DNA from: an uncultured virus (IMG/VR IMGVR_UViG_3300027832_000014)
Lineage: Duplodnaviria; Heunggongvirae; Uroviricota; Caudoviricetes
Length of the DNA: 64,000 nt
Direction: 5' to 3' (one strand)
Virus record (IMG/VR): IMGVR_UViG_3300027832_000014
Of this stretch, positions 16,324 through 60,660 are shown in pieces. A model generated the notes under the pieces. That model saw only the letters and a list, made by a program, of their open reading frames with translations, did no database searches and was not told the DNA's origin. Both the position numbers and the translations under genes were made by a program. How positions within the stretch are numbered: position 1 is the stretch's first letter; the number at the start of each line of letters is the position of its first letter.

Positions 16324-17754
16324 TTAGTCCTCCTCGTCGTCCGGTTCATCCGATAGTTCTTTCAACATGTCAAAGTAATTGCTGCTAAGGCGCACGCTAT
16401 CCACCACAAATTGGCTTTGCGTATAGTTCTGGCTAACCAGAACGGTAAAGGAGTCCTGGTCCCCACGGGCAAGCTGTACCGTCACCCTAGCAAGCCCAAG
16501 CATCTTTTCCATCTTTGTCTGGTTGTAAATAACCACAATGTCCGCGGTAGCCATCTTGCTAAAGTCTTCCGCGATATTGCTCTCAGTCATTTCCTTGCGG
16601 CCGACGCCCTGCCGGTTGCCCTGACTAAAGGTAACCACGGCGGCATTACGCTCTTGCCCCAAGCCGCGTAGGTCGACGTACAACTTGCCAAGCGCGTCTC
16701 GCTTGTTATCGGAAGGCACTTCCATAATGTCAGCGTAGTCAAGGATAATTAGGTCGGGGATAAAGCCTTCCCTCTGTTCCAGGTTATCCAAGTAAGCGTT
16801 AAGCCCCTTAATGGTCAACTTGCCACTAGGGAAGCCTTTAACAATAATGTTCTTAATGCGGTAGCCAACTTGGTCTATCTTCTTAAGCAGCTTGGACTTA
16901 ATGTTGTCATCTTCAAACGTGTGCTGCGGGGTGCGGTCCACCGGCAACATGTCGACCAGCTTGCCTTTCTTAACTTCTAGTCTCGTAATGGAGATGTCTT
17001 CTTTGCGCTTGGCAACAGCAAACAAGTTCTGCACATAACGCTGTGCAATAGCTTCCGCACTCATTTCTAAACTAATGTGCAAGACCTTCTTGCGATTAAG
17101 CAAAGACTGCCTTCCAAGGTTTACCGCAAACTGTGTCTTCCCCCTCTTGGGCAGAGCCACAAAGACGAATAGGGTTTGTCTAGCGGGGCACACTTGGTAC
17201 TTGTCAAATTCAGGTATGCCTGTTGGGAATTCTAGTTCTTCGTCCAGCTTGTCCAAGAAAGACAAACTACGTGTGGTATCTATAAGGCGAATACCCGGTT
17301 CAAACAGATCCAGCTTTGTTTTCTGAGCCTTGGCTAGAATCTCATCCACGTCATCAATGGCGTCGCTTCCCATGCTGGCTAGCAGTTCCGCGGATTCAAG
17401 CACGGCCTGCATGGTTACTTGCGTCCTAATAAAGTTCTGCAAGCTGGACATCACGTACTCTTCGTTGATGTCCTTATGGGACTGCTCAACATTGAGAATG
17501 GTGTCACGGTACTGCTCTGCAATGTCTTCGTCGCTATGGTTAAGCTCGTTCTCAAACAAGTCCGCCAAATGGACAAAGCCGGGGGGCTTCCCGTAGGTGT
17601 CATAGTAATCACACAGAGTTTCCATCATGTCGGCGTAGTGCCCAATGAAAAGTTCAGGCTTAATGGTATTGCGTATGATGCCCGCTTGCTTTTCACTAGT
17701 TGCCAGCAACGCTAGGAGGTTTTCCTGCGATGCCTTCCCAAGACGTTTTGCCAT
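16324..17754 (-). CDS. DnaB-like replicative helicase
   Basis: PTGIPEFD, ALPKRGKT, ISLEMS, ILDYAD, SQGNR, AEDFSK. Confidence 0.9.
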   Translation of the reverse strand: MAKRLGKASQENLLALLATSEKQAGIIRNTIKPELFIGHYADMMETLCDYYDTYGKPPGFVHLADLFENELNHSDEDIAEQYRDTILNVEQSHKDINEEYVMSSLQNFIRTQVTMQAVLESAELLASMGSDAIDDVDEILAKAQKTKLDLFEPGIRLIDTTRSLSFLDKLDEELEFPTGIPEFDKYQVCPARQTLFVFVALPKRGKTQFAVNLGRQSLLNRKKVLHISLEMSAEAIAQRYVQNLFAVAKRKEDISITRLEVKKGKLVDMLPVDRTPQHTFEDDNIKSKLLKKIDQVGYRIKNIIVKGFPSGKLTIKGLNAYLDNLEQREGFIPDLIILDYADIMEVPSDNKRDALGKLYVDLRGLGQERNAAVVTFSQGNRQGVGRKEMTESNIAEDFSKMATADIVVIYNQTKMEKMLGLARVTVQLARGDQDSFTVLVSQNYTQSQFVVDSVRLSSNYFDMLKELSDEPDDEED

Positions 17755-18593
17755 TATGGGATGGCCGTGAACAAGTGCTGCTGAATGGTAAGTCGGGCAC
17801 CATACTCCATACAAAGCTCTGCGGTGCGTGCGTAGTTGCGCGCCGTGGCCTCACGGTCAATGTGTTCCCCCGACCAGCCGCTAACCACCTCGCTAGTGGG
17901 CGCGCTATGGTACACGGCAATGGGAGACAGCCACACACGCTCCATGGGGTTTATTTTGTATGCCAAGTCTTTCCCCCAAGCCGGGATATCGTAGTACGGG
18001 CTTTCCGGGTCTGCACTAATAAGGAACTTAAACACGTCTCCGAAGGTTTTCATCCTATCTGCAATTTTGGGAACCGGTTTCTTTGCAGAATCGTACTTCT
18101 TCAACTTCTCAGCAGCTTTAGGCGAAACCACAATAGTCACTCTGCTCCCGGACATGCGCACCAACCACTCCGGCATATAGGTGCCGTTGGTTTCCAGTTG
18201 GATCTCGTACCCTTCCGCCTTCAATGCCCTAAATAGATTTTCCATGGGAATGTCGGGTTGCAGGAGGGGCTCCCCTCCGGTAAGGATAACCAGCTTGCTT
18301 TTGGTACCGCTTTGCACAATCTCTAACAGATCAAGCGGCGCGTATAACAGCGATTTGTTTATGGAGAAGTCTGTGTCACAAAAAGTGCAGCCGGGGCCAG
18401 CCTTTGTGCCCTTGCCCCCAAAGTTGCAACCACCAAAGCGAATGAAGAAAGCGGGCCTGCCCGCAAAAGGTCCTTCTCCCTGTAAGGTATCAAAGTGCGT
18501 GCGAACCAGAAGTTTACCTTCCTCAAAGAACTTCTTTTGAAAAGCCCCCTTACCATAACTGGTGTCCACGTTTACCGGATTGTATTTCGTCAT
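17754..18593 (-). CDS. queE: 7-carboxy-7-deazaguanine synthase (radical SAM)
   Basis: TLQGEG, FIRFGGCN...CTFCDT, TGGEP, ETNGT, VSPK, QQH. Confidence 0.93.
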   Translation of the reverse strand: MTKYNPVNVDTSYGKGAFQKKFFEEGKLLVRTHFDTLQGEGPFAGRPAFFIRFGGCNFGGKGTKAGPGCTFCDTDFSINKSLLYAPLDLLEIVQSGTKSKLVILTGGEPLLQPDIPMENLFRALKAEGYEIQLETNGTYMPEWLVRMSGSRVTIVVSPKAAEKLKKYDSAKKPVPKIADRMKTFGDVFKFLISADPESPYYDIPAWGKDLAYKINPMERVWLSPIAVYHSAPTSEVVSGWSGEHIDREATARNYARTAELCMEYGARLTIQQHLFTAIP

Positions 18594-22489: not shown

Positions 22490-23305
22490 AGATATAGCTA
22501 TGCCCTTTCTGGCCTACATGGCGGGCTTACGCTTCTCTTCGCTAGCGCAGCTTATCACGTAGTGGCAAGTGGAATAGATGCTGGCACTTCTACGAGAAGT
22601 AGGCATCTAACAGGATAAAACCTGTAATAGAGCTTCTTTTTCCACTCTTAAGCCAACCCAAGCACTTCTTGGGGCACCATACTCGGTTCCTCCACCCGTA
22701 GGTGGCAGCGGGCTATCTGTTTCACCCGGCTGTCTGGCATCAATAAGGCCACATCGTTTTACATCCGTGACCAGTGTTGCTCTTGCTAGAAACTCTATAG
22801 GCCAGAAACAAGAGCAACACCATGTAGATGTTTAGGCTAAGTAGGCACCACGTTGTCAGGGGCACGACAGAGCGTGGATTTGTTTTAGCTACTGGTTTTA
22901 GGAGGATGACCGGGCAGGATAATGAAAGTGTGGAGAATTGCTGGCTTGTCTTAGCTACCGCGGGCGGGGCTACTGGTCTCTCTTGGAGGAGCACGATGCG
23001 CCGTGAAGTCGCATAGTTAAGACCAGTACCACTAACGCGCCTCGGTGCGTTTGGGCCAACAACATCTACCTTGGGTGCCGGTGTCATCGGGGGAGTAGTG
23101 ATGAATCCGGCGGGAGGTTGTGCATCACACAAACCAAAGTAGAAACACTCATGGGCATAAGTGCCCCACACTTTCATTATCCTGCACGATCTGCTCCCAA
23201 GCGGGAACCAAGTGTAACCGTGGGCAGTACTTCCTTGTCTGCTTGCGCAGGGCGGCCACTAGCCATAACCGCCATGGGGCAAAGGTAAGCCCGCAACAGG
23301 GCCGG
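22490..23305 (+). ncRNA. Candidate large structured ncRNA (~800 nt)
   Basis: Nested helices 22521-30/23285-94, 22560-66/23255-61, 22914-33/23166-85 (20 bp), 22774-85/22809-20, 22971-79/23020-28, 22575-81/22603-09. G-U pairs favour the + strand. Confidence 0.7.
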
Positions 23306-23501
23306 TGCAATCCTTCGCCCGCAATTATTTGTCATAGGGTTGTTATACCCCCCGCAAAGGTGTGTTTGCTTGCATTTTAAGGCCCGTAGGGGTCGTGTCG
23401 GCGACCGGGGCAGTACCAGCGGCCCGGTTTTGTCGCCGACCGCACTGGCGGGCGTTTTTTGTGCAAGGACACATTAAGCACATCCTAGCTTGGTTAACAG
23501 G

Positions 23502-25641: not shown

Positions 25642-26187
25642 TTATTCTCCTTCCCAAGCATTCATTAAAAACAAACGTGTTTCGGATAATTCAATGAAGT
25701 TGTTTGCGACCCGCCGAAGGTCGTCGCTTGCCATGGGAGGGTTGGTCGCCACGGTACTTACAACGGTGACCCGCACGCCTCGCCGTTGTGCAGCTTGTAC
25801 CACTGGCACGAAGTCCCCGTCGCCCGTCATAAGCACCACATGGTCGCAATGGGCGCAGCTTTCCAGCACGCCGACCGCCATGTCTACGTCCATGTTGCCT
25901 TTGATACGGTCAACCCCGTCATTGGTGTACCGCTTGGCTTCTCGGGTAACCAAGGTGTACCCATTGAAAGATAGCCAGTCCAGTAGTGGTACCAGCGCAT
26001 TGTGCTCGTCGCCGGTATCCAACACGGCGGTGTAGTAGTAAGCAGACACCAGTCGGCAGTTGCCTTGGAAGTAGGTTAGCACCTTCTTCCAGTCCATGCT
26101 GCACCTAAGTGCCTTAGCCGAGGCAGACACATTAGCGCCGTCCACGAACAACATGGTGCGTTCATCTTTATAAAACATTGTGGTCAT
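25642..26187 (-). CDS. NYN-domain (LabA/DUF88) protein
   Basis: LFVDGAN, AYYYTA, PLLDWL, KGNMDVDMAV, TGDGDF. Confidence 0.9.
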   Translation of the reverse strand: MTTMFYKDERTMLFVDGANVSASAKALRCSMDWKKVLTYFQGNCRLVSAYYYTAVLDTGDEHNALVPLLDWLSFNGYTLVTREAKRYTNDGVDRIKGNMDVDMAVGVLESCAHCDHVVLMTGDGDFVPVVQAAQRRGVRVTVVSTVATNPPMASDDLRRVANNFIELSETRLFLMNAWEGE

Positions 26188-28702: not shown

Positions 28703-28918
28703 TCATTGTCCGCTGACATAGGTGTACAGGGTGGCCCGAACAGCGCAGTCCTTGGCTTCCAGCATCTTGCGCAGCATAACAGTGCGCTCAGGGTTGCGCG
28801 CAATGACGTGGCACATGGTTTCCGCCAATTCGTGGAACGGCTTGGAGATCTCCTGCAAGTGCGGCGGGAGGTGGTCATACTTGAAAAACTGTGCCAGTGG
28901 TTCCGTATTAAAGCTCAT
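28703..28918 (-). CDS. Conserved small helical-hairpin phage protein
   Basis: QFFKYDHLPPHLQEISKPF...NPERTVMLRKMLEAKDCAVRA; RBS GGGAG. Confidence 0.8.
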   Translation of the reverse strand: MSFNTEPLAQFFKYDHLPPHLQEISKPFHELAETMCHVIARNPERTVMLRKMLEAKDCAVRATLYTYVSGQ

Positions 28919-29080
28919 AGCGTATGCTCCCTGTAAGTGCCTAGTTGCCCATTATTATACGATAACGGCAAAAAGACCATGCCTTCTCGCTAAATGGTTT
29001 TCTGTTATGGTTTAACTTGACTGTGACCGGAGTGTGACATCCAGAGAGCGGAACCCCGAAAGGTTCCGCCTTGCTGGGTG

Positions 29081-29242
29081 TTAGGGTGTAGGGTTCTCCG
29101 TCTCGCTCCGCGCAATTCGGGCGGCGCACATGGCGATCGCCACATTGCACGCCGCTTGCGAGAAACGCAGGGCGTCCGCGGAATCGCTGGATTTCGCTGC
29201 CTTGTCCACCAAGACTTCAACTTCTTTGGTTTTGTCATTCAT
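29081..29242 (-). CDS. 53-aa hypothetical protein (not in the ORF track)
   Basis: MNDKTKEVEVLVDKAAKSSDSADALRFSQAACNVAIAM...; followed by a UUCG hairpin at 29048-29069. Confidence 0.6.
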   Translation of the reverse strand: MNDKTKEVEVLVDKAAKSSDSADALRFSQAACNVAIAMCAARIARSETENPTP

Positions 29243-29409: not shown

Positions 29410-30105
29410 TCAGGCAATCCATCCGCGCGCTTTGGCGATGGCCTCGATCAGTGAGACCTTGGCGATACACTCAGAACGAAGGATGGGATCGTCGGCATGA
29501 GCGGCATCCCAATGCACCTTGGCTTCGTCGAGGGTGAACCAGCGACAGCCAGCGGCGATCATCGGCCCGGTGTCGTGCTGCACGGCAACGAATCGATAGC
29601 CGCGAGCGTCCTTCCCGGCGTCGATGATGGAATTACTGTGCAGGTTGGCACCATTCAGGTTGGCGCCGATCAGGTTGGCACCACTCAGGTCGGCACCACT
29701 CAGGTCGACGTAGAGCAGGTCGGCGCGCGAAAGGTTGGCATCGCTCAGGTGGGCACCATTCAGGTCGGCACAGATCAGGTTGGCACCACTCAGGTCGGCA
29801 CAGATCAGGTTGGCACAGATCAGGTTGGCGGCGCGCAGGTAGGCATCGCTCAGGTAGGCGCCGATCAGGTCGGCACAGATCAGGTTGGCCCCACTCAGGT
29901 CGGCACAGATCAGGTTGGCGCGCGAAAGGTTGGCGCGCGAAAGGTTGGCACAGCGCATGTCGGCGGCGCGCAGGTAGGCATCGCTCAGGTAGGCAAAGCG
30001 CAGATCGGCGCCGCTTTCGACTGCAAGCATCACGCATCGGCGCAGGTCATCGGTATCGGCCTCGAACAGGACCGCCTCAGTGAGAATGTGTTTGATCTGG
30101 TACAT
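29410..30105 (-). CDS. Pentapeptide-repeat protein
   Basis: More than 20 A(D/N)Lxx repeats; C-terminal AGCRWFTLDEAKVHW. Confidence 0.93.
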   Translation of the reverse strand: MYQIKHILTEAVLFEADTDDLRRCVMLAVESGADLRFAYLSDAYLRAADMRCANLSRANLSRANLICADLSGANLICADLIGAYLSDAYLRAANLICANLICADLSGANLICADLNGAHLSDANLSRADLLYVDLSGADLSGANLIGANLNGANLHSNSIIDAGKDARGYRFVAVQHDTGPMIAAGCRWFTLDEAKVHWDAAHADDPILRSECIAKVSLIEAIAKARGWIA

Positions 30106-32815: not shown

Positions 32816-34162
32816 CTAAAAACCTTGCGACCGCAAGTCATCCATGTCAACCTTCATCACCTGCCCCCAAGGCACCTTGTCCTGGTCCGTAGTGCTGGCC
32901 CAAAGGACGGGGTACTTGGGTTCCGGCCCGAAGTCGTGGACATACAGGTCGGTAAGGAAGATGGCACAGTGGATGTCCAACCGCATTTCCGCGACGCTGT
33001 GAAAAATACTGGAGAACGCCGTTCCACCGCCACCAACCTTGTGGAGCGTGATGGGCAACTCGTCCGCATCAAAGGTATCGTGCCTCTGCAACTGTGTGTC
33101 TCCGTAGAAGACATGGCAGGTGCTAGGCCGCACCTCTTCCAGGATGTTGCTGATGATACCACCAAACACCTTGAGCTCTTCCGGCCCAATGCTGCCACTG
33201 GTATCAACGAACACAGCCATTTCACCCATCTTGCCCTCGGAGTCGAGGGTGGGCAAGTAGAAGCCGTGGTTCAACATGTACCTGTCGGGGGACATCCAAT
33301 TGTAGTCATCCATTGCCTGCTCGGTAAAGAACCGGCGAAGGATATCCTTCCAGTCGATGCGCGGGTGGAGGAAGTCGTTAATGAGTTCTTCCACGCCCGC
33401 AGGTACATCGCCAGCCGACTTTGCCGCGTGGTAAGCGCCCGCAAGAGCGCCCTTCCACTTGTCCCGCAGTACTTCCCCCAACTGTTGTGGAGTAAGGCCC
33501 GCGTCGTCGTCCCTGTGGTTGTTGGTGGTATCACTTGGCTTGCCAACCGACCCCGCAGGAAGGATGTCCTTGTTGTCCCCGAGGGCTTTTCCATAGCCAC
33601 CTTTGTTGGACGGCTTGCCCTTGCCTTTCCCGGGCTGTCCGGGTCCACCTTGGCCTTGTCCGTCCTCGTCGGCGGAACCTTCGTCGTCCCCTTCTGCACC
33701 GCTACCCTGTTCAGGTGGCGGGGGGTCAGGCAACATCTTGTAGACAGTGTCCGCGTTCATGCCCTCGTACTTGCTATCCAGCAAGCCACCTTGGGGCATG
33801 GTCATCGAACGCTGTTTCGACAAGATAAGGTTGATAACGTAGTCACAAGCGACGTTCCACTTGTCCGGCTCGCGTTCTCCAGTTCGGGCAATGTGGTCGA
33901 GTGCACAGTGGAAGGTCTGGTGCGCCACGAGGAAAACCTTTTCCTGCTTGGAAAGGCTGTCCCAAAAGTCGGGGTTAACAACGATGTACACCCCGTCCGT
34001 AGCCGCCGTGGGGATAATCCACTGGTGAATTCCCTCGGCAACCTTCAGCCGCAGATTCATGGCCAACTGCCCAAAGAAAGGATGGGCAAGCAGCATGAAG
34101 CTACGGCACTTTCGCAGGTCATCGAGCGTGGCCTGCTCTCGGGCTTTATTTACTTCGTGCAT
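32816..34162 (-). CDS. DUF2201-like metallopeptidase-fold plus VWA-like domain protein
   Basis: TAATDG, AHQTFH, WNVACDYVIN, VDTSGS, GGGGTAF, FLTD. Confidence 0.88.
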   Translation of the reverse strand: MHEVNKAREQATLDDLRKCRSFMLLAHPFFGQLAMNLRLKVAEGIHQWIIPTAATDGVYIVVNPDFWDSLSKQEKVFLVAHQTFHCALDHIARTGEREPDKWNVACDYVINLILSKQRSMTMPQGGLLDSKYEGMNADTVYKMLPDPPPPEQGSGAEGDDEGSADEDGQGQGGPGQPGKGKGKPSNKGGYGKALGDNKDILPAGSVGKPSDTTNNHRDDDAGLTPQQLGEVLRDKWKGALAGAYHAAKSAGDVPAGVEELINDFLHPRIDWKDILRRFFTEQAMDDYNWMSPDRYMLNHGFYLPTLDSEGKMGEMAVFVDTSGSIGPEELKVFGGIISNILEEVRPSTCHVFYGDTQLQRHDTFDADELPITLHKVGGGGTAFSSIFHSVAEMRLDIHCAIFLTDLYVHDFGPEPKYPVLWASTTDQDKVPWGQVMKVDMDDLRSQGF

Positions 34163-34253
34163 TTGTTTAATCTCCTCCAAGTTAGTGCAGTGTCACAAAG
34201 TGACTAAGAAAGGGTAGGGGCTTTCGCCCCTACCCCGCTGGAAACCCAGCTAC

Positions 34254-35393
34254 TTACGACGCAGCCTGCTCACCACGGTCAATGTCCGCCTCGGAAACGT
34301 CCGAGGCGGGCACATAGCTGTCGACAGGGGCGGTTTCGTCCGCCACACTGCTACCCGAACCGCCCGTGGTCGACACAGGCGACTGGTTGCCCTTCTTACG
34401 GGGCTGCTTGACCAGCTTGACCACAGGCTTCTTCTTGGGAGCAGCACCCTTCTGCGCCGCCACCTTTTCCACAGCCGCCGCCTTCTTGTCGGCCTTGGCG
34501 ACGTTGGCCTTCTTCTTCTCGTTCTCACGGGAAGGCATACCGGCCTTGGAACGCGCCGTCTTGGAAAGCTCTTTCAAGCCCTTCAAGGTAGCGCCGCGCA
34601 CCACAGTATCGCCGCGGATGGACTCAATGTCAGGCTTCAGCACGTCCTTGAACTGCTTCAGCATGTCGTTGAGTTCCGTGTCGTTGAGAACGTTCAGGGT
34701 CTCCATCGACGCCAAGGTGGCCTTCACACGACCAACAAGGCGTTCCTGCAAAGAACGGTCGGGGTCCTCGACGCGCTCCAAGAGGAGCTCGGCGTTTTCC
34801 ACGACACGTTCCCACAGGTCGGTGGCAACACTCTTCACCACCGTGCGCATGGCTTCTTCTCCCTGTGCGATCAACGCATCGCGCGATTCCGCCGACACCT
34901 TGCACCGGAAGTCGGTAGCAGGGTTGGGGACGGGAAGAAAGCGCACGTCAACCGCAAAACGGGAACCCAGCCGCTCCGACGAGGGGTAGTCTTCCTCGCG
35001 GAACAGAAGTCCCAACTCTTCCCGGGCCTTCTCACGAACGCCCGTGTAGTCCGCCACGAACAGCTTTGCGGCCTTCATCGCTTTGACGCGCATACTGGCC
35101 ATTTCCTTGTTGTAGTTATCCATGGCCTCCACGGGCAGAAGACGCAAGCCCGTGTCGAGCCACGGCAACGTGGCGTCGAGGTGGAAGGTGCGAATCTGGC
35201 TCACCATCTTGTAGAAAGTGGCATGGTGCTCGTTAGCAACCAGCCGCTTGATGAACCGGCCAGCCGAACGCTTGGCATGGCTGTCCGTGGTAACCTTGGA
35301 CGCCGTCGCCTTGTCATTCTTCTCGCCCTTCCAGCCGCCGATGAAAAGCTTCACAACGACGGCATTTTCCTCAATGAGGGAAGTGGTATTCAT
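34254..35393 (-). CDS. DUF3150-like protein
   Basis: TLPWLDTGLRLLP, LFREEDYPS; lies between the MoxR and VWA genes. Confidence 0.65.
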   Translation of the reverse strand: MNTTSLIEENAVVVKLFIGGWKGEKNDKATASKVTTDSHAKRSAGRFIKRLVANEHHATFYKMVSQIRTFHLDATLPWLDTGLRLLPVEAMDNYNKEMASMRVKAMKAAKLFVADYTGVREKAREELGLLFREEDYPSSERLGSRFAVDVRFLPVPNPATDFRCKVSAESRDALIAQGEEAMRTVVKSVATDLWERVVENAELLLERVEDPDRSLQERLVGRVKATLASMETLNVLNDTELNDMLKQFKDVLKPDIESIRGDTVVRGATLKGLKELSKTARSKAGMPSRENEKKKANVAKADKKAAAVEKVAAQKGAAPKKKPVVKLVKQPRKKGNQSPVSTTGGSGSSVADETAPVDSYVPASDVSEADIDRGEQAAS

Positions 35394-35476
35394 AACGTAC
35401 TCCTCCAATAGTTCGCAGTGGTCACATTATTATGACCTAAGTAGCGGGAGGCCCGAAGGCCCCCCGCCAATGGCAG

Positions 35477-36502
35477 TTACGACGCCCAATCCAGGCGCAC
35501 GTTGTTTTCATTCACCCAATCCAAGAACGCACGAGTGGCGACGAGCTTGTTGTTCCGCCTGCCAATCATCCGCATGGCCATGGTACCAAAGTCCACGCCA
35601 ATCTCGTCCCGGTCGATCAGCTTAACGAAATTGCTGATCGTGTTCTTGTCCACGACGCGAGAAACCGCCGTAACCAGAGCATAGGTGTAGGACACATTGT
35701 CGGCGTCCAGCTGCACCTTCATGGGGTCTGCCAGCACCTTCCTGGGATCAGGCAGCTTAGCCACCATATCCAAGAAGTGGCAGAACTCCACGGCAAAGCC
35801 GTCACCAGCCGCGCCACGAATCATCTCATTGCGGATGTGGGTAGGAAGATCCATCCGCGCGATACGCGCCGCAGCTTCCACGGTGCGGGGCACCGGGGAG
35901 TTGACTTCCACATCGGCCGTGGGCTGGAAGTCAAACAACAGGGCGGGGCGAAACTTGATGAACGCCGCCATGTCGTCGTAGCCCGCGTCGATCGCCCAAT
36001 CGCACCACTCCTGCACGCTAACCTCAAGCGTGAAGATGGTGGTGAAACGGGACTTAACAGGCTCAAGCAGCCCGCCAACGCCCGCCTTGTCCTTGCGGCC
36101 ATTGGTAGCGGCCATGAACGTAACGCAGTCAGGGACCACATACTCGTCCAAGCGCCGCTCCAACAGAAGCTGCATACATGCAGCCTGCGTGGACGGAGCC
36201 GCCTGCCCGAGATCATCCAGGAAGAACACGGTCGGCTCAGTAGCGGCCAACATGTCCCTCAAGGCCCCAATGGGCAGGAACTCTGCGCGGTATTCGTCGC
36301 CGTCCTTAATCGTGGACGGCATACCGCGGAAGTCGATCGGCTGCGACACAACGGGGTGGGTGATGATCAGGTCGTAGTCTGCAGCATCTGCCGCCATTTT
36401 GATCAACGAAGTCTTTCCCACTCCCGGGGGGCCAACCAGCAAGGCAGGCTCCCGGTTTGCAATGAGTGCCGTCAGCGCAATAACAGTGCTTTTCGGATGC
36501 AT
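35477..36502 (-). CDS. MoxR-like AAA+ ATPase
   Basis: GPPGVGKT, DFRGMP, FLDDL, AATN, SRF, PRT. Confidence 0.88.
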   Translation of the reverse strand: MHPKSTVIALTALIANREPALLVGPPGVGKTSLIKMAADAADYDLIITHPVVSQPIDFRGMPSTIKDGDEYRAEFLPIGALRDMLAATEPTVFFLDDLGQAAPSTQAACMQLLLERRLDEYVVPDCVTFMAATNGRKDKAGVGGLLEPVKSRFTTIFTLEVSVQEWCDWAIDAGYDDMAAFIKFRPALLFDFQPTADVEVNSPVPRTVEAAARIARMDLPTHIRNEMIRGAAGDGFAVEFCHFLDMVAKLPDPRKVLADPMKVQLDADNVSYTYALVTAVSRVVDKNTISNFVKLIDRDEIGVDFGTMAMRMIGRRNNKLVATRAFLDWVNENNVRLDWAS

Positions 36503-36800
36503 TTTTAAGTACTCCTCCAGTTTGCAGTTTTTGTCCAATATGGACTAAATAATACCAGCCAACAAAAGAGAGTAGCAGGGGGCCGGAGCCCCCTGCTATC
36601 TTCATGGTGCGTAAGAACCACCAATAAGTCCGTCGGAACCGGCTCTTGGGGTAGGATCCTCGTTTGGGAACGAACTTTGCGGCGGCTCCATGTCAAAGGC
36701 ACAAGAGCCAAAGACAGGCAGCATCACAAAGGCGAAGAACCAAAAGAAAACCATTCCCCCAACGAACCGCGATCCGTACTTAAACATTGTTTTCATAGTA

Positions 36801-38577: not shown

Positions 38578-39063
38578 TCATTCGGTAACGGTAGGCTCTA
38601 GCAAGCGATAGACGTAGCGAGCCGCATGTCTGTGGAACTTTTGCGTGTTTTGCAGGTTTTCAGTTGCCCATGCAAGCAAACATCCTCTGGCATCCTCAAA
38701 GTCGGCCACAGGCTCACCCCACATGTAAACATCAAACGTCTCCGCTTCCACTGTAACCCGGTACTTGAAGTTTGCTCCGGGAGTGGGAAGAAGTATGTGC
38801 AAGAACACATACCACGTATGTTCGTCTTCTTCCTCACCAAACAGTTCAACGAACAGGAGTTCGTCATCTGGCTTCTCAACAGCCATGGCGTTTTCGATGG
38901 GTGTTTCGGTTACCTTACCTTTCCCAAGGAACTGTTCGGCCAGTTGTAGCAGTTTCTTCTCCGCCTCGGACTTGTTCCAAACCGGGGAAGTAACTATCGT
39001 GTTGCTGTTGGTCAGCCATGTCTTCCTCTTCGTCTTCCTCGTCTTCGTCCATGTCTTTGTCAT
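38578..39063 (-). CDS. Hypothetical protein
   Basis: 161-aa ORF; start uncertain. Confidence 0.6.
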   Translation of the reverse strand: MTKTWTKTRKTKRKTWLTNSNTIVTSPVWNKSEAEKKLLQLAEQFLGKGKVTETPIENAMAVEKPDDELLFVELFGEEEDEHTWYVFLHILLPTPGANFKYRVTVEAETFDVYMWGEPVADFEDARGCLLAWATENLQNTQKFHRHAARYVYRLLEPTVTE

Positions 39064-39066
39064 GGC

Positions 39067-39360
39067 TTACATCACAGCCGCTTCGCTGAAGCTGTACTCC
39101 AACGTCTTCTGGCACTTATTACACCAGATGAATTCTTCGCCGCGGTACAGTTCTTCTGTCTCCTCAGTGGGGCCGTCCTTGGTGAAGGTCACCAAGAAGT
39201 AGGCAGGCTCTTCCACCAAGTAGTTGTTGGCATGTTCCGAAGCGCGAAACAGCGCACCCATGAGGCTGGATTCGGGTTCGTCCCCGTCAGCCATGACCTG
39301 AATGGTTTCAGTGCTGAGATGCACCTCTTCCAAGTCTTCCAATTTGGGAAGTTTTTCCAC
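39067..39360 (-). CDS. Acidic hypothetical protein
   Basis: Follows the degenerate leader repeat. Confidence 0.65.
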   Translation of the reverse strand: MEKLPKLEDLEEVHLSTETIQVMADGDEPESSLMGALFRASEHANNYLVEEPAYFLVTFTKDGPTEETEELYRGEEFIWCNKCQKTLEYSFSEAAVM

Positions 39361-39523
39361 TAATTTCTCCTCCAGTTGGTTGCAATGAGATACTTAGCCA
39401 AGCATCCCGGTAACCTCTAGGCGCAAGCGCACCTAGAGGAAACCGGGCCGCTCCACTACGAGTGAGTGTAGCCGTCCTTTTCGCTATATACGTATGGGGT
39501 TCAGTCTCGAGATCAGCCCCTTC

Positions 39524-40386: not shown

Positions 40387-41300
40387 TGTAATGTACTCCT
40401 CCAGTTAGTTGCAGTGACACAAGATAAAGTGTCTAAAGAATCTATAAAAGAAAGGGACGCTAAGGTTTCCCCTAGCGTCCCTCACTTTGTGCAGGACATG
40501 AAGGTGCTGTTACGCGGCCTTCTGTTCGGCAACCTCGGCCTTCAGGTCGACGGGCTTGGTCACGAGGTCAAACCCATTGCTTCATCAACGAGTTTCTTAG
40601 GGATCAACCAGTCTCGGGTCAAGTTTGTGACCTTGATGTCTGGCTCCTCTTTAAGAACTGTCTTGACAAATACCTTGCCTGCATTTTCCATTTCCTTGAC
40701 AGTAGGGTGACGCGCACCTTTGGGAAGGGTAGCCATACCTTCCTTGGTCCACGGCTTGCCAGTATCGCCGTCAATGCCGTCGTTCCAATACCATTTCCCC
40801 TTGAGAGGAAATACGACGAAACTCAGGAAATGTTTCCACTTCCTAGCACCGCCGTTAGAGATGGCATCGACCATAGCCCCGTCAGGGGTACGGAACGTAC
40901 CAAAGCCGGGAATATTCGTATCGCGAGATGCTTTGAGTTTCTTAGGCTGAACCAGCTTCTTAGCCTTGCTAGCGATAGTCATTTTCTTGTCCTTGTTTTG
41001 TTTCATTGTAATGTACTCCTCCAGTTAGTTGCAGTGACACAAGATAAAGTGTCTAAAGAATCTATAAAAGAAAGGGACGCTAAGGTTTCCCCTAGCGTCC
41101 CTCACTTTGTGCAGGACATGAAGGTGCTGTTACGCGGCCTTCTGTTCGGCAACCTCGGCCTTCTTGGCGCGGGCCTTCTTGGGAGCCGCCTTCTTCTCCG
41201 CCTTCAGGTCGACGGGCTTGGCGTCTTCCGCCTTGGCCACCTTGTAGCGCATCCGACCCATCTTCTCGTCGCGCTTGGCCACGAGGTCAAACCCGTTGCG
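40374..41300. repeat. Direct duplication: 40374-40543 identical to 40994-41163, continuing with two deletions
   Basis: 170-bp identity read directly from the sequence. Confidence 0.95.
40560..41006 (-). CDS. Hypothetical protein
   Basis: Follows a leader repeat. Confidence 0.7.
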   Translation of the reverse strand: MKQNKDKKMTIASKAKKLVQPKKLKASRDTNIPGFGTFRTPDGAMVDAISNGGARKWKHFLSFVVFPLKGKWYWNDGIDGDTGKPWTKEGMATLPKGARHPTVKEMENAGKVFVKTVLKEEPDIKVTNLTRDWLIPKKLVDEAMGLTS

Positions 41301-41483
41301 GTGGAGCACGGCCTTGAGCTTGGTCGGGTTGGTGAACGTTCCGCCGTACACGGCGTCCATCTCGTCCTTGGTCAGCGCCTTCTTACGCATGGCGTCGGCC
41401 AGCTTGCACGAGGCGGTGCCGTTGACGAAGCCAAGCGGGCTGTAGCGCTCGCTGGTCTTCTTGGTGGCGGTCTTGGTCGTCAT
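41130..41483 (-). CDS. Small basic putative DNA-binding protein
   Basis: Lys/Ala-rich tails; core aligns with the 46272 and 48613 proteins. Confidence 0.8.
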   Translation of the reverse strand: MTTKTATKKTSERYSPLGFVNGTASCKLADAMRKKALTKDEMDAVYGGTFTNPTKLKAVLHRNGFDLVAKRDEKMGRMRYKVAKAEDAKPVDLKAEKKAAPKKARAKKAEVAEQKAA

Positions 41484-41558
41484 AGTGTTTCTCCTCCAAG
41501 GAGTTTGCAGTGTGTCGGCACAGGTAAAGTGCCTAAGATAACTCTGTAACTACCCTAT

Positions 41559-44788: not shown

Positions 44789-46271
44789 GGTTGTATTTCT
44801 ACTTTCAACGATTGGTTGCCATGTTACATTCAAAGTACCTAAAGGGTTTTGGGGGTAACGACCGATTTCTGCGTAGAGGTAGCTGGTTTGGACGCTTTAC
44901 TACCGCGCATACTTTCTATTTTGTTGTTGCTTGTTAAGAAGTTACCCCGTTTGCCCAATTATTTCAGAACGGTGCCACCCACCCGGTAAATTATATCTAG
45001 CTTCACCGGGCCTGCCTTGGCGAATTAGAAACCAAGACAGTATGGCGGTAATGCCGAATGGCACCGCCCCACTGCTTATTTGGAGGAGGAGATTTTACTA
45101 TGGGGGCTGCCCTACTTGATTCTCCATTGTAGCCAACTACTGCGACTTTATGCTGCACTAAGTAGATATTTGGGGCCTAACCCCTGCTTACCTGACTACG
45201 ACGTGCGCCGCATGGCTGGTATTGCCCGCTAGGGGCAACTTACGAATGAATAACAAGGTACTGTATGCCCTTGCACCCTGGATGGGCCGCTTCTTAACCT
45301 TACCAGCTTGCTTGCTTGCCGCTTGTAGAATGGGCGAAGGGCGTAGTAAAGTCTTAGCGGGGCCGCTTTGCTAACGGACCGATGGCACTAGGGCTGCGGC
45401 ACATGCTGTTAGGAATACCCCGGCACTTACGATGATTCCAAAGGGGCTTTTTTAGGTTACCCCTTGTGAAACCAACTGGCTTCTCTCTTCCACCCCACCT
45501 TTTACCGTGGGCTTTGCGACTGTGCGGCTGCATGGTGGAACTTTGGACGGCCACCTGCACCCATTTTCGCCTTATTATGAACGCTTTGTTATGGGGTAGC
45601 TGCCCCCAGCCGACCGACTTAACAGCCGCTATTTAAAGTAGACACACACACACAACCTACATAATAACATAACCAGCGCCACAACATAGCTCTGCAACTA
45701 TTATTTGCCTCCGATGGGTATAAACGGGTTCAGGCACTTCTCGTATTATCCGCTATATACCCCTATGGTCCAGCTTCACCGGGCGTACCTGTCTGTTCTT
45801 GCTAGATCGTTAGATAGATAGATGCTCAAAGACACACAGTTCCATAGAATAATGAACTTCACACACACACATACCTGTATAAGGAAACTCGAACTTCTTT
45901 GTTCTTTTTTTAAAATTATCCGTTTTTATGGGTAAAACACTTCTTTTTTGACCAAAAAACAAGAAGGATGGACTTTTTCACTATATACGCCCATAGAATT
46001 AGTTTCAGTGAAGTTCGAGTCGCATTGCTAATATTCCAACCTCCCCCATCGCAAGAACCACGATACTCGAACTTCCTTTTATATATAGATCAAAGAATAT
46101 CGAACTTCGCAGGGTTTACCACAAGAACCACGATACTCGAACTTCCCCACGGAGAGATAGTGTAGAAGAAGTTCAACAGAAACTACCCTTGCAAGATACG
46201 TTCGAGTTTCTCGGCCCGGTACACAAAAAAAAAGGAGGCGAGGCCCGTAGGCCCCGCCCCCCTTCTTTCAA

Positions 46272-46682
46272 CTAGGCCCTGTGGGCGTTGGTCGAGTGCT
46301 TGCCCGCCTTGCCCTTGGTGGCCTCGCCATCGATGCTGTACAGTACCGCGCCGTGCTCGTTACGGGTGGTCGTGGTGCTGAACCCTGCCGCCCGCGCCTT
46401 GGCCAGCAACTTGGCGATGTTCGCGTAGTGCCCACCGGCCAAGTTGTTCAACGCCGCCTGCGTGGCGGGGTTGTTGTGAATGTGCGCCGCCACCATGGCG
46501 GGCACACTGTTGACACGGAAGCCGAACGGGCAGCGCGCCCCTTCAGTAACAAGCGCATACTTCCACTTTCCGCCGGAAGCCTGCCCCACGGTGAAGTGGA
46601 CCAAGGGCAGGGCGTTGGGGTTAACCAGCGCCTTGCGAGCGGCCGAAGTAGCAGCAGCCTTGGTAGCGTAAAGAGTCTTCAT
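46272..46682 (-). CDS. Basic Ala-rich protein, paralog A
   Basis: RBS GGAG, downstream terminator; highly similar to 48613-49083. Confidence 0.85.
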   Translation of the reverse strand: MKTLYATKAAATSAARKALVNPNALPLVHFTVGQASGGKWKYALVTEGARCPFGFRVNSVPAMVAAHIHNNPATQAALNNLAGGHYANIAKLLAKARAAGFSTTTTRNEHGAVLYSIDGEATKGKAGKHSTNAHRA

Positions 46683-47225
46683 AACTAATTCTCCGAGTGG
46701 TTGGTTTGAATTGGCCAAGGGGCAAGCCAAAGAAGCCCCCTGCCTTCGCTACGTTCACTATCGAACCAGTAGCGGGTACTACCTATTTAGTTGGTAGCAA
46801 ACACAATATACAAGATCTATATATTCTAGTATATGAAATAAAACAAGAACATGCTCTATAATTTTTACCCCTATGTCCTAAGATACTCGAACTTCGCTGG
46901 ACCTTTTCGCTTTAGAAGACTTTTAGAAATAAAGTCAAAGGATTCGAAGAACGCGTCCACGTATTAAAGAGTTTCGAACTTCACTGGAGGTAGAACAAGG
47001 GGAAGAAGTTCAACAGAAACTACCCTATGTCCTAAGATACTCGAACTTCACGGGGCATATATACAAAAACTCAAAACAGGGTTTGGACAAGAAAACGCGC
47101 AAACGGAATAAAAACAAGCTGTAAATGTGCTATGCTTGGAATGTACCGCCTGCATAGGTGCAGCCCGCCACTGGCGCAAACCGCGTGGCGCTTACCAACC
47201 AAGGCAACCAACTAGGAGAACTTCA

Positions 47226-47543
47226 ATGGCTACCACCAATGCAATGGACTTGGAGAACTTCCACACTGCCCATGCGGACATCCATTACCTTGCTGCAAAC
47301 GGGCAGGTTACCTTCCTCCAAACCGTGGTTAACGCCAGCCACAACGACGTTCAGGCTATTGTGCTGGCGCACGCAAAGCGCCACCATGTGGCAGGTACCT
47401 ACACCTGCACCACAATGGAAGACGCTAATTTGGAAGATCAGTGGGTATGGGTAGCGCACCACGGCTATAACCCGTACAAAAAAGAGGTGTGGTACTGTTT
47501 GGACGATCAGTATGCAGACACTCCCTACATGTACAAGTTGTAA
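47226..47543 (+). CDS. Hypothetical protein
   Basis: RBS AGGAG; terminator at 47552-47588. Confidence 0.7.
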   Translation: MATTNAMDLENFHTAHADIHYLAANGQVTFLQTVVNASHNDVQAIVLAHAKRHHVAGTYTCTTMEDANLEDQWVWVAHHGYNPYKKEVWYCLDDQYADTPYMYKL

Positions 47544-48390
47544 GTTCTATACGGGGCAGGGCACAATGCCCTACCCCTTCTTTTTTTATGTACCTGCAAT
47601 ATAGTTTCTACATTCACGGGGGTACAGGGTTAAACAAGCTACCTTGTCCAATGCACCACGGCGATCACGGCCACAGTAGTGATTGCAGCCATTTTAAAGC
47701 CCGTATAGCACGATCTGTGTCCTTGTTAGCTAGTGGGGTCGCTTAAGCCCAATAAGAAGCTATTGGGTCGCTTAATTTTGCACGTATCATAAGAACAGAC
47801 CTTTTAACTTTAGAGCAGACCTATTGAGAACGTAGAAGGATTCGACGTGTAAAAAGAAGGTTCGAATCCCCTGGATCTGACTTAAAATGCTCGAACTTCA
47901 CGCTTCCAGCCGTTCTGAAGCAGAAACTCCCCATTCTGGCAATTCTACTTCTCAGAACGTAAGAAGGTCTCCCCAGAACGTAAGAAGAAGTCAGATTCGC
48001 AAGATAACCAGTCAGATCGCAAGATGAGAAGCGATTGTTCTCGGTCGTGGCACGGTTCTTGCTTTCCGGCACTCGCGCTTGCAAGATCTGTGCCAGTTCT
48101 GCGTCAAGTTCTTTTTATTTTAAAAAGATCTTTTTTCTGTTGACGTGTTCTCTTCGCCACAAAAGAGTTGCAAGAAAGAGCCGCTCTAGGAGGCCTCGTA
48201 GAACGCGAGAAACGGAGGGACATGGATGGTGCTCCCACGGACGATCCACTTCTCTTCTACGGCGCTCTTTCACGTGCTAGAAGCTGTCATGCAAATTCTG
48301 CATAGATGGCACTGGGAGGGCTTGCGCGGGCAATTTCCGTGCCAAACGAGAACAGATTTGATAAGATAATTATGCTTGAAGGTGCGTTTT

Positions 48391-48419
48391 TTTGTATACG
48401 CCATTGCTGGCTGCTATAT
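48391..48419 (+). promoter_or_regulatory. sigma70-like promoter TTTGTA-N17-CTATAT
   Basis: Rhizobial-type spacing; sits at the left edge of the GA/TC-free island. Confidence 0.5.
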
Positions 48420-48612
48420 GGTTAGTGGCGTTGCAACTGCATAGCAACACCCCGCCACTAGCTAGCGCGTGGCGCGCCTGCCCCGCGCTAGGCCATGGCC
48501 TAGTTACTGCACACGGGGGTACGGTTACTAACTACGCCATGCCGTGCAGGCTTACCGTGCACGCCATGGCGCACTAACTGGCAACCACACCACCAACTAA
48601 AGGTACAAAACA

Positions 48613-49083
48613 ATGCGCAAACAATATGCAACAAAGGCTGCTGCTACCAGTGCGGCACGCAAGGCGCTTGCTAACCCCAACGCCCTGCCCTTGGTACACT
48701 TCACCGTTGCACAGGGCAGCGGCGACAAGTGGCGCTATGCGCTGGTTACCGCAGGGGCGCGTTGCCCCTATGGCTTTAGGGCGGGCAGCGTACCCGCTGC
48801 CGTTGCAGCGGCCATAGGGCAACAGCCACACACGCAAGCGCAACTTAACACGCTGGCGGGCGGCCACTATGCCAACATTGCCAAGCTTTTGGCAAAGGCG
48901 CGGGCGGCAGGGTTTAACACTGCCACGGCGCGCAACGTTACCGGCGCGGTAACCTACGCCATAGGCGAGCCGGCCACCAAGGGCAAGGCGGGCACACACA
49001 CCACTGGCAACGCGCACCGTGCCGCGCCAAGCGCCACCCTAGCGCCGCCAAGCGCCACCCTAGCGCCGCCAAGCGCCACCTAG
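48613..49083 (+). CDS. Basic Ala-rich protein, paralog B (GA/TC-depleted)
   Basis: Aligns end to end with 46272-46682; APPSATL repeat tail. Confidence 0.85.
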   Translation: MRKQYATKAAATSAARKALANPNALPLVHFTVAQGSGDKWRYALVTAGARCPYGFRAGSVPAAVAAAIGQQPHTQAQLNTLAGGHYANIAKLLAKARAAGFNTATARNVTGAVTYAIGEPATKGKAGTHTTGNAHRAAPSATLAPPSATLAPPSAT

Positions 49084-49135
49084 CGCCACCTAGCGCCACC
49101 TAGCGGCAGGCACGTTGCCTGCCGCTAGGGTGGCC
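49025..49135 (+). repeat. 21-bp x3 and 10-bp x3 tandem repeats followed by a 12-bp hairpin
   Basis: GCCAAGCGCCACCCTAGCGCC units; TAGCGGCAGGCA-CGT-TGCCTGCCGCTA. Confidence 0.9.
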
Positions 49136-49173
49136 TACAACCTAACAACAAGCGCCATGGGGGCGCACAAACA

Positions 49174-49356
49174 ATGGTCAACGTTATAACTTATTTTCTT
49201 GGCGTCTTTATTATAGCGGGCACCACGCTGGCCATGGTGTACATGGGCAATGACTTAACTTGGGGCGTGTTCGCTTGCGGCTTTACTTCGCAGTTAGCGG
49301 GCGGCGCGCTGGGTTTACTTGCGTTGCTTAAAGGTACTAGCCGCCCCTATTCGTAA
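49174..49356 (+). CDS. Small two-TM membrane protein
   Basis: Two hydrophobic segments. Confidence 0.55.
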   Translation: MVNVITYFLGVFIIAGTTLAMVYMGNDLTWGVFACGFTSQLAGGALGLLALLKGTSRPYS

Positions 49357-49684
49357 ACCTATTGAGTACCCTATAGGGGGCGCGCGCCGCAACGTGTACC
49401 CTATGTAGGGTCAGGGTTGTAGATAAAATACGTCGGAGTCAAAATAGTTGAACGATCTGCTTTTAGTGGAATACGTCGTAGTTAAAATAATTCCTCGAGC
49501 TGCTTTTAGTAGAATAAACACAATACCCCGGCACCAGAACAGCCAAACGATCCATTACTAATAGAATAACCCCCAATAACACCCCCGAACGAGACACCAT
49601 TTCCCAAGAACAATTACAAGAACCACACACACAATACCAGATAAAAAACATCCATTACCCATACATCTACAACCGTATCCACGG

Positions 49685-58857: not shown

Positions 58858-60129
58858 ATGAGGAAAGACATGGAAGACGACAAGAAGACTGCCGCTGCCG
58901 ATTCCGGCAAGCCGGTTAACATTAACGACATCGTTGCCGATGCCGTTGCAAAGGCTCTCACTGGTTTCCAGCCTACCGAGGCCAACGAAGCCAAGACCAG
59001 CGACCCGGCCAGTGGTTTCGTGGACCGTGTTCGTGGCGTTAGCACGCATACGAGCGCCACACATGGCCGTGACCGTATGCCCACCAGTGGTCGCCCGCAG
59101 GACGTGGGTATCGCCGCTGGTCGATACGTGCGTGCACTGGCGTTCGGTCGTGGTGACGGCCATCGTGCCGTGCATTTCGCCAAGAACGCTTGGGACGACG
59201 ATCTGGGCGATCATCTGCAGAAGGCCCTCTCCGCTGGCGACATGACGGGCGGTGGTTTTATGATTCCCCCGGAGTACTCGGCGGAAATCATCGAGCTGCT
59301 TCGTGCCCGTTCGGTGGTTCGCGCCGCAGGTGCCCGTTCGGTGCCGATGCCCAATGGTAGCCTCACCATGCCCCGCCAGCTTACTTCGGCTAGCGCGGCC
59401 TATGTGGGCGAGAATCGTTCGATTTCTTCCTCGGAACCGACGGGCGGACAGCTCGTCATGGTTGCCAAGAAGCTGGCAGCGCTGGTTCCGATCTCGAACG
59501 ACATGCTCAACTACGCTTCGGGCAACGACGCGGACGCTTTCGTGCGTGACGACCTGATCCAGTCGCTTGCTACCCGCGAAGATCAGGCTTTCCTGCGCGA
59601 TGACGGTTCGCAGAGCAAGCCCAAGGGTATGCGCCATTGGTCGAACAACCTTGTGCCCACGACCGGCACGTCCGCGGCGCAGATCGAGGGGGACCTCAAG
59701 GACCTCATCAATGCTCTGCAGATGGACAACGTGAAGATGGTTCGCCCCGTCTTCTTCATGGCCCCCTCGGCCAAGAACGCGCTGTCGATCCTGCGGGACA
59801 GCAACGGCAACCTGATCTACCCCGAACTGAAGATGGCTGTGCCGACGCTGTGGTCGTATCCCGTCTTCACGTCCACCAACATCCCGGTCAACTTGGGCGC
59901 TGGTGGCAATGAGTCGGAAGTGTACCTCACGGACATGAACGACGCACTGATCGGCGAGATCCAGGGCATTGAGATTGCCGTGGATACTTCCGCTTCGTAC
60001 ACGGATGGCGCTTCGCAGGTGTCTTCGTTCGAGCGGGACCAGACCCTGATGCGTGCCATCGAGCGCCATGACTTCGCCATGCGCCATGACGAGTCGGTTG
60101 GTGTCCTCACCGGCATCACTTGGCAGTAA
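58858..60129 (+). CDS. Major capsid protein (HK97 fold); exact start uncertain
   Basis: GGFMIPPEYSAEIIELLR, AAYVGE, KKLAALVPISN, LRDSNG, FERDQTLMR. Confidence 0.95.
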   Translation: MRKDMEDDKKTAAADSGKPVNINDIVADAVAKALTGFQPTEANEAKTSDPASGFVDRVRGVSTHTSATHGRDRMPTSGRPQDVGIAAGRYVRALAFGRGDGHRAVHFAKNAWDDDLGDHLQKALSAGDMTGGGFMIPPEYSAEIIELLRARSVVRAAGARSVPMPNGSLTMPRQLTSASAAYVGENRSISSSEPTGGQLVMVAKKLAALVPISNDMLNYASGNDADAFVRDDLIQSLATREDQAFLRDDGSQSKPKGMRHWSNNLVPTTGTSAAQIEGDLKDLINALQMDNVKMVRPVFFMAPSAKNALSILRDSNGNLIYPELKMAVPTLWSYPVFTSTNIPVNLGAGGNESEVYLTDMNDALIGEIQGIEIAVDTSASYTDGASQVSSFERDQTLMRAIERHDFAMRHDESVGVLTGITWQ

Positions 60130-60177
60130 TCCGGTAACGGGCCAGCAGTAACCACACAAACGAAAGAGGTAACTTAG

Positions 60178-60660
60178 ATGCAGTCTATCATGCACGATAT
60201 CGGGGCCTACATTGTCGCCGTTCAGGCAATTGACCCCGACGAGATCACCACCACTGGTGATGGTGTTCTCGCTACCGGACGGGTCATTGACCGGGAGGCC
60301 AACTCCTCCTACCCGCTGCTCTCGGGCAGTCTGGTCGTGTCCTACAAGACGGTACTCACCGCCACCAAGGCGCTGACGTTGTCCACCCTGTTGGAGCATA
60401 GCGCCAGCACGGCGTCGTCCACGTTCGCTACCTTGGAGACGAAAGATGGGTCCACCGCTGCACAGTCGAATGCGGATACCAACGCCACTACCGCCGGGGT
60501 TACCCGGCGCGGCGTGCAGAAGATCGACTACGATCTTGGCCATGCCAAGCGTTACTTGCGGGCGAAGGTCACGCCGACCCTTTCGGCCAGGAGTTCGGAC
60601 GTGGCGGGCTACGCAGCCGTCCTCGTCTTCGGTGGCGGTCAGACCCGTCCCGCTGCGTAA
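60178..60660 (+). CDS. Putative head decoration or minor capsid protein
   Basis: Directly after the MCP; beta-rich, Thr/Ala-rich; KRYLRA..TP motif. Confidence 0.6.
   Translation: MQSIMHDIGAYIVAVQAIDPDEITTTGDGVLATGRVIDREANSSYPLLSGSLVVSYKTVLTATKALTLSTLLEHSASTASSTFATLETKDGSTAAQSNADTNATTAGVTRRGVQKIDYDLGHAKRYLRAKVTPTLSARSSDVAGYAAVLVFGGGQTRPAA

Follow-up and report, generated by a model that had tools for sequence, protein, structure and literature searches.

The closest described counterparts of the system considered here are the DNA modification systems of phages Iggy and CAjan. The DNA transglycosylase DpdA of Iggy, a phage with 1091-bp direct terminal repeats, has a strict GA motif, with ∼97% of GA sites modified (PMC10484667), while the DpdA of CAjan modifies GA plus GGC (PMC7544227). 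The host glycosylases Dag1 and Dag2 are described as destroying phage DNA marked with 7-deazaguanine (bioRxiv 10.1101/2025.10.29.685425), which is a concrete reason to leave a gene unmarked. The stretch of DNA that we analysed (IMG/VR record IMGVR_UViG_3300027832_000014; 64 kb, hereafter the window) comes from an uncultured lake phage that carries dpdA and the preQ0 genes. It contains a block of about 1 kb in which the GA step and its reverse complement TC (together, GA/TC) are almost absent. Within the block lies gene B, whose twin, gene A, stands some 2 kb away with an ordinary complement of GA/TC. We conclude that the feature is real and strongly selected: a unit that lacks one base-pair step, an ordinary twin, and a phage equipped to mark that step.

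The depletion is extreme and sharply bounded. In the strict part of the block (799 nt; coordinates of all features are given in Table 1) there are 3 GA/TC, where ∼85 would be expected from the density of the window and 91.8 from the base composition of the part itself, giving a Poisson probability of 3 or fewer of ∼2e-35. When gaps without GA/TC are ranked by length across the window, the top three (323, 243 and 211 nt) follow one another at 48378-49178 and the fourth has 77 nt; the maximum in 200 shuffled versions of the window was 94 nt. On the left the block is bordered by GA/TC-rich DNA (47801-48378, with 15-19 per 100 nt over 47801-48300), and on the right the strict part passes into a shorter, partly depleted part. 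In total we examined ∼85 kb of this phage, that is, the window plus 21 kb from a second record of the same phage, G001. No second such block was found in it: outside the block, gaps reach at most 77 nt within the window and at most 66 nt within the G001 extension. A smaller GA/TC-poor stretch at 23238-23393 proved to be within the range of chance. A second lake study, of later date, yielded contigs with the block, again GA/TC-free, and with variants only at 48560 and 48561, neither of which creates a GA/TC.

The ratio of observed to expected counts (o/e) within the block is 0.08 for GA and 0.12 for TC, against 0.74-1.66 for the remaining 14 dinucleotides; in the genome outside the block GA stands at 0.79 and TC at 0.92. 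The GG and GC steps are not depleted, and TT is raised (o/e 1.55, against 1.22 elsewhere). The purge also reaches into non-coding DNA, as the leader and control region of B has no GA/TC at all (P 1.5e-11). The loss of both reverse-complementary steps, extending through the non-coding leader and the promoter region, indicates a reader of duplex DNA rather than one of RNA or protein. Avoidance of restriction sites of 4-6 bp, such as GATC or GANTC, was rejected as an explanation, given that ∼90 expected GA/TC are gone, far beyond a handful of sites. The depletion belongs to the block, which is larger than the gene B that the original prediction had described, and which is best read as one whole transcription unit.

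Genes A and B are divergently transcribed and, as that prediction had said, form an inverted paralog pair; its coordinates, strands and counts of GA/TC (26 in the 411 nt of A, 3 in the 471 nt of B) all match ours. The two proteins are identical at 104 of 137 positions (76%; BLASTP E 5e-54) and the DNA at 71%, and B has an additional tail of 19 residues encoded by 21-nt tandem repeats. When synonymous codons were resampled according to the codon usage of the phage, 28.8 ± 4.1 GA/TC were expected in B, and none of 5000 samples had 3 or fewer; A, with 26 observed against 31.5 ± 3.9, is ordinary (p 0.096). The directional bias that had been proposed is strong and extends to the amino acids. B retains one of the 26 GA/TC of A, against 219 of 380 other dinucleotides (Fisher 2e-8), and the sites divide into 25 found in A only, 2 in B only and 1 shared (binomial 6e-6). 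The loss of these 25 sites involved 11 synonymous and 14 protein-changing substitutions, and the residue changes from A to B include E to A, E to V, D to G and E to P. Lysine gives way to arginine in B where AAG would come after a codon ending in G, and the serine codons of B are AGY. The motif changes quoted earlier (VTEGA to VTAGA, RNEHG to RNVTG, SIDGE to AIGE) are present. C to T accounts for 3 of the 13 lost TC sites and G to A for none of the 12 lost GA sites; this substitution spectrum contradicts an origin by deaminase or hypermutation.

The proposal that the phage keeps two versions of one gene is likewise borne out. For the pair, the ratio of non-synonymous to synonymous substitution rates (dN/dS) is 0.22 and dS is close to 1, so that both are maintained as proteins under purifying selection. 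Neither open reading frame (ORF) of the block stops with TGA, the stop of B being TAG. B is preceded by a weak ribosome site, AAAGG, where A has GGAG, which contains GA.

Which of the two copies changed is less clear, and here a third, more distant paralog, C, is of use. It corresponds to residues 50-117 of A and B (tblastn E 4.5e-5; hhalign 75%, E 2.7e-5). Acidic residues number 4 in A and 2 in B, against a genome average of 12.9%, while asparagine and glutamine together number 12 in A and 13 in B, against 4 in C; the net charge is maintained, with isoelectric points (pI) of 10.0-10.9 across the three proteins. Of the 8 acidic residues that C has within the well-aligned domain, A retains 1 and B none; where the alignment is less reliable, there is one more position at which C and A, but not B, have an acid. 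The prediction that B was the copy recoded therefore holds in part: B lacks acids at 2 positions where A and C share them. However, 6 of the 8 acidic positions of C are non-acidic in A and B alike, so that the ancestor of A and B was already acid-poor. These comparisons suggest that acids were lost in B, with a polarity that is weak in an alignment of 25% identity, and A may be a partly relaxed copy of an already purged gene.

The phage encodes the enzymes for a mark of the DpdA type. Its DpdA-like protein has tblastn matches in 182 phage records, is 31-35% identical to annotated phage DpdA proteins, that of Iggy included, and, when aligned with the DpdA proteins of Iggy and CAjan, conserves the blocks LDSGAF, RYPW..CDS.SW and AFG; it has no Pfam match at E 0.01. 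The genes for DpdA and for preQ0 synthesis lie beside the polymerase and clamp genes in the same order as in Iggy, CAjan and ZHS. A thymidine-modification gene was not found in the 85 kb.

Our preferred reading, to which we give a probability of roughly 0.55, is that the block forms a transcription unit that escapes modification of G by the phage itself, and is hence indifferent to whatever reads the mark. Selection would keep the block without the GA/TC step on both strands, and the likely reader of that step would be the phage's DpdA-type system, replacing the G of GA with 7-deazaguanine. Having no GA on either strand, the unit could never be marked, and so would look alike in DNA that has just entered (marked) and DNA that has just been replicated (unmarked). 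Any factor that binds, cuts or excises at GA, whether marked or not, would fail to see it. B would be made whatever the state of modification, and its twin A, which lies among GA/TC-rich repeats, would be exposed to that state. Expression of one copy from incoming modified DNA, as the original prediction had it, is plausible because the dpdA and preQ0 genes are present and GA is a known DpdA motif. We infer that the DNA is modified at all, that this DpdA would target GA, and why the exemption would be useful.

Several results weigh against this reading. Most of the early-looking genes are unpurged, so that modified DNA can evidently be transcribed. The identity of this DpdA to the characterised enzymes is low (31-35%). 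No purged gene was found in any of the four cultured dpdA phages examined (Iggy and CAjan, tested by resampling of ORFs; ZHS and Me-ZS1, by gap and 500-nt window scans only), and ZHS, whose DpdA is nearest to that of this phage and whose gene order is shared, lacks GA/TC-free stretches altogether. The structure model of A and B was unusable (predicted local distance difference test score, pLDDT, 37), and no relatives of the cassette beyond strain level were found, which limits the check on its conservation to strains. Searches for A and B in viral contigs, metagenome contigs, 5.8 billion proteins and 1.84 billion representatives returned only the proteins themselves, strain variants and surface proteins with DUF5633, and a search of the phage collection with the DNA of 45800-49500 gave no match.

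Relatives of the phage were also sought through its portal protein. A search by close portal patterns found nothing, and portal alignment yielded 79 related viral loci, none of which has A, B, the 60-aa ORF, the 105-aa ORF or the neighbouring genes. A GA/TC-free stretch occurs at E <1e-4 in two of the 79 and at 3e-4 in one more; two of these three are low-complexity coding repeats and one (locus L039) is non-coding. The region in L039 (500-1190), whose portal is 40% identical, comprises ∼700 nt of repeat-rich non-coding DNA with 9 GA/TC and a 230-nt gap. No DpdA was found in the 30-kb fragment that L039 represents, and none was matched in the records, mostly fragments, behind 5 portal-related loci. 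In Iggy, the end region of the record is GA/TC-poor and mostly non-coding, at 2.3 per 100 nt against 9.7 genome-wide; over 59600-60628, the last ∼1 kb, the density is ∼3 per 100 nt.

The purge might instead avoid an activity that reads GA/TC and is unrelated to DpdA, for example a TC-context deaminase or a nuclease with a very short motif, belonging to the host or a competitor, with the modification acting as a parallel counter-measure. The absence of a purged gene from all four cultured dpdA phages would fit such an explanation. However, no candidate enzyme was identified here, the A-to-B changes lack the footprint of a deaminase, and the genome elsewhere is undepleted at the o/e values given above, so that a lethal attack would still strike there. 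We consider this explanation unlikely.

Less likely again is that the block is a terminal repeat, a packaging segment or a first-entry segment, kept unmarked for terminase, end processing or first-step transfer. Its length of 1034 bp is near that of the 1091-bp repeats of Iggy, whose record ends in ∼1 kb of GA/TC-poor DNA; the position of the Iggy repeat within that record is, however, not given in the accessible text of the paper. The block also adjoins an iteron-rich non-coding region, and the cumulative GC skew has its minimum at ∼48-56 kb. Against this, in public sequencing runs, which we examined as assembled contigs, contigs cross both edges of the block. Contigs from two runs bridge 46135-49029 and 46135-48559, placing A and B on one continuous stretch, which gives no support to the suggestion that one copy lies at each genome end. 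There is no two-fold plateau in depth either: a contig confined to the block has a depth of 307, against 385 for the left flank and 267 for the right, these being contig depths confounded by strain mixtures. Furthermore, the block is a complete, expressed-looking unit whose ORFs are under purifying selection, and the large terminase subunit TerL is encoded far off, in the 21-kb extension.

A purge at the level of RNA, by which the mRNA would evade an endoribonuclease cutting GA or UC, appears very improbable. The phage does encode a candidate, an NYN-domain ribonuclease (25642-26187), a host toxin being the other, and the entire transcribed unit is depleted. Yet this would need one ribonuclease to read two unrelated, reverse-complementary dinucleotides, and the promoter-proximal 5′ edge, which is probably untranscribed, is depleted as well. 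An unselected origin, by local hypermutation, from foreign DNA or by chance, for which the raised TT (o/e 1.55 vs 1.22) might be cited, can be dismissed in view of the Poisson probability of ∼2e-35 and of codon-aware replacements that keep frame and protein (dN/dS 0.22); we know of no genome without GA/TC, and thus of no foreign donor for the block.

Table 1. Coordinates of the features discussed, in positions of the 64-kb window.
Feature	Position	Strand	Description
GA/TC-depleted block	48379-49411	+	whole rightward unit, sharply bounded
Strict part of block	48379-49177	+	799 nt, 3 GA/TC
Weaker part of block	49178-49411	+	9 GA/TC in 234 nt, partly depleted
Leader/control region of B	48379-48612	+	234 nt, zero GA/TC
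Promoter-like element of B	48392-48420	+	TTGTAT, 17 nt, TATATG; just inside left edge of block; read from sequence
Copy B	48613-49083	+	recoded paralog; 156 aa, 471 nt, pI 10.9, 2 D+E
Tandem repeats, 21-nt then 10-nt	49025-49134	+	span 3′ end of B
Perfect 14-bp hairpin	49099-49129	+	after tandem repeats
60-aa ORF	49174-49356	+	hydrophobic, two hydrophobic segments, grand average of hydropathy 1.0; putative small membrane protein
Copy A	46272-46682	-	136 aa, 411 nt, pI 10.4, 4 D+E; DNA composition ordinary, protein acid-poor
Promoter-like element of A	46784-46813	-	TTGTAT, 18 nt, TAAATA
Terminator-like hairpin of A with T9 run	∼46215-46262	-	3′ of A stop; read from sequence
105-aa ORF	47226-47543	+	between A and B; 21 GA/TC vs 28.6 expected, mild depletion
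CTCGAACTTC 10-nt word cluster	45888-47899		9 copies (7 exact, 2 with one mismatch) plus longer repeats
Paralog C	41130-41483	-	117 aa, 14 D+E, 12.1 GA/TC per 100 nt; Lys/Ala-rich tail
DpdA-like DNA transglycosylase	6494-7654	-	phrog_887, E 3.7e-45
FolE with intein	7522-8571	-	PF01227
QueC	8552-9352	-	PF06508
QueD	11235-11720	-	PF01242
QueE	17754-18593	-	PF04055 and phrog_2076

The promoter-like elements of A and B are the only two matches in the window to the pattern TTGTAT-N15-19-TAWAWR, a pattern drawn up post hoc; a sigma-70 scan did not call the element of B, and the hairpin with a T9 run behind A is likewise absent from the calls of that scan. The predicted RNA fold of the leader of B is no more stable than that of shuffled sequences (z -1.3). 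The 21-nt repeat at 49025-49108, which encodes the APSATLAPPSAT tail of B, varies in copy number between strains, giving proteins of 149 or 156 aa, and breaks assemblies. The only TC of B lies in a Phe codon, and in one strain variant, observed at the protein level, this Phe is replaced by Tyr. The 60-aa ORF has 7 GA/TC against 14.1 expected (p 0.004). Pfam and PHROGs gave no matches for A, B, the 60-aa ORF or their neighbours.

As to what the proteins are, modelling of C gives a predicted order of elements, H-b-H-H-b-b, that fits a winged helix (pLDDT 58.6). The top Foldseek matches are almost all winged-helix proteins, of the TFE-alpha, MarR, ScpB and ArsR types, the best having an E-value of 0.027 and none reaching 0.001; the domain has no sequence match in the PDB. 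On this evidence residues ∼50-117 of A and B are probably a winged-helix domain, and the whole is likely to be a basic DNA-binding protein. A protein atlas, with scores of 0.77, gave no lead, and C is an orphan as well. An ORF on the opposite strand to C, and longer (40707-41549, +), is probably spurious.

The N-terminal 45 residues of A and B resemble DUF5633 (PF18656), a helix-plus-hairpin repeat of Gram-positive surface proteins. A profile search matched surface proteins with DUF5633 repeats at E 4e-8 and 3e-7, and all 7 of 7 family members have sub-threshold matches (best E 0.007; hhalign 45%). The N-terminal module is thus DUF5633-like in sequence, with membership falling short of the Pfam gathering score (A, 12.5 bits against 23.6). 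No mention of 'DUF5633' was found in the literature full texts searched.

The 10-nt word CTCGAACTTC recurs on both sides of A and upstream of B, in a region of non-coding DNA that is rich in AT and in GA/TC. The window has 10 matches to the word, where 3.3 are expected, and 9 of these fall in the cluster of Table 1. This region resembles control or origin DNA, and would be heavily marked if GA is the motif. A strain variant seen in two runs skips 248 nt between two of the repeats (45886-46135; depth ∼120 vs ∼280), so that the array evidently recombines. The 105-aa ORF between A and B has nothing in Pfam or PHROGs except one sub-threshold Pfam match; its leader (47139-47216) is GA/TC-free and has in common with the leader of B a hairpin word, CGCCAC...GTGGCG.

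The remainder of the window is recognisably phage DNA, encoding a family-A DNA polymerase, clamp, clamp loader, primase, helicases, RNase H, portal, protease, an HK97-type capsid protein and two tRNAs; an Rfam scan found the two tRNAs and nothing else. The record G001 spans window positions 1-39024, ending short of the block, and continues 21 kb leftward, by which the genome is at least 85 kb. This extension (G001 39000-59977) encodes RecA, a PDDEXK nuclease, an SbcCD-like pair, TerL and a tail protein of 1778 aa. The G001 contig ends at a 42-nt word (window 39021-39062) that is repeated in arrays at G001 28734-29126 and 39099-39370. In the preQ0 cluster, the intein of FolE (PF14890, residues 95-239, E 1e-16) is followed by the C-terminal part of the FolE domain. 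Between QueC and QueD, at 9442-10560 (-), lies the gene for a 372-aa protein that is 38.6% Asp+Glu, has internal repeats and matches no family; this protein may be a DNA mimic, and its gene has 18.4 GA/TC per 100 nt, the highest density among the longer ORFs of the window. A pentapeptide-repeat protein (PF00805, E 7e-46) is encoded at 29410-30105 (-), and the kilobase around it has 13 GATC, the maximum for the window. In a GC-richer segment, 32816-36538 (-), the genes for a DUF2201 metallopeptidase/VWA-like protein and for an AAA ATPase are separated by ∼1.3 kb, which holds an unannotated ORF of 384 aa (34254-35408).

If the unit is indeed exempt from the mark, then phages encode stretches exempt from their own hypermodification, and modified phage genomes are not uniformly protected. 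The modification motif of a phage could be read from its sequence, as the word that an exempt cassette avoids. The block would single out a few genes whose products, here a probable DNA-binding protein and a membrane peptide, have to function whatever the mark; such genes would be good candidates for a regulatory or counter-defence role. Having a normal and a purged twin, the phage would also supply a natural matched control for experiments. A broader and decidedly speculative idea is that purged twins form a general phage circuit that senses the state of modification of the genome, telling incoming from replicated DNA or serving as a fail-safe pioneer unit. In such a circuit B would be the constant regulator, its unmarkable gene supplying a DNA-binding protein even while modification-dependent defences attack marked DNA, and A, markable and embedded in GA/TC-rich iterons, would be switched by the mark.

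We found no description of a purged unit and its twin in the literature, nor of islands free of a modification motif, the accessible text of the Iggy and CAjan papers included. The pioneer or pre-early genes of T5, which lie in the first-step-transfer region within the terminal repeat, and gene 0.3 of T7 are small, self-contained early units. They share with the block the idea of a unit expressed before, or independently of, the rest, the unit here being known from sequence alone. Avoidance of restriction sites and other short motifs is similar in that selection acts on DNA words, on both strands and through synonymous codons. Here, however, the word is a dinucleotide, its avoidance is confined to one 1-kb unit in 85 kb, non-coding control DNA is included, and the cost is paid in amino acids, strength of the ribosome site and TGA stops. 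Modification-dependent defences, namely type IV restriction and Dag1/Dag2, are a known source of pressure that would leave an unmarked gene intact and transcribable, although none is known for the host of this phage. In Iggy and CAjan the GA marks have been measured, whereas this phage is known from its genes, with a DpdA 31-35% identical to theirs. Neither has a purged gene, Iggy having only a GA/TC-poor, mostly non-coding end region, and a second motif like that of CAjan is not avoided here, GG and GC being undepleted. What the three phages have in common is a DpdA encoded with FolE, QueD, QueE and QueC beside the DNA polymerase and clamp, and the step that is missing from the block is the very step that the DpdA of Iggy and CAjan marks.

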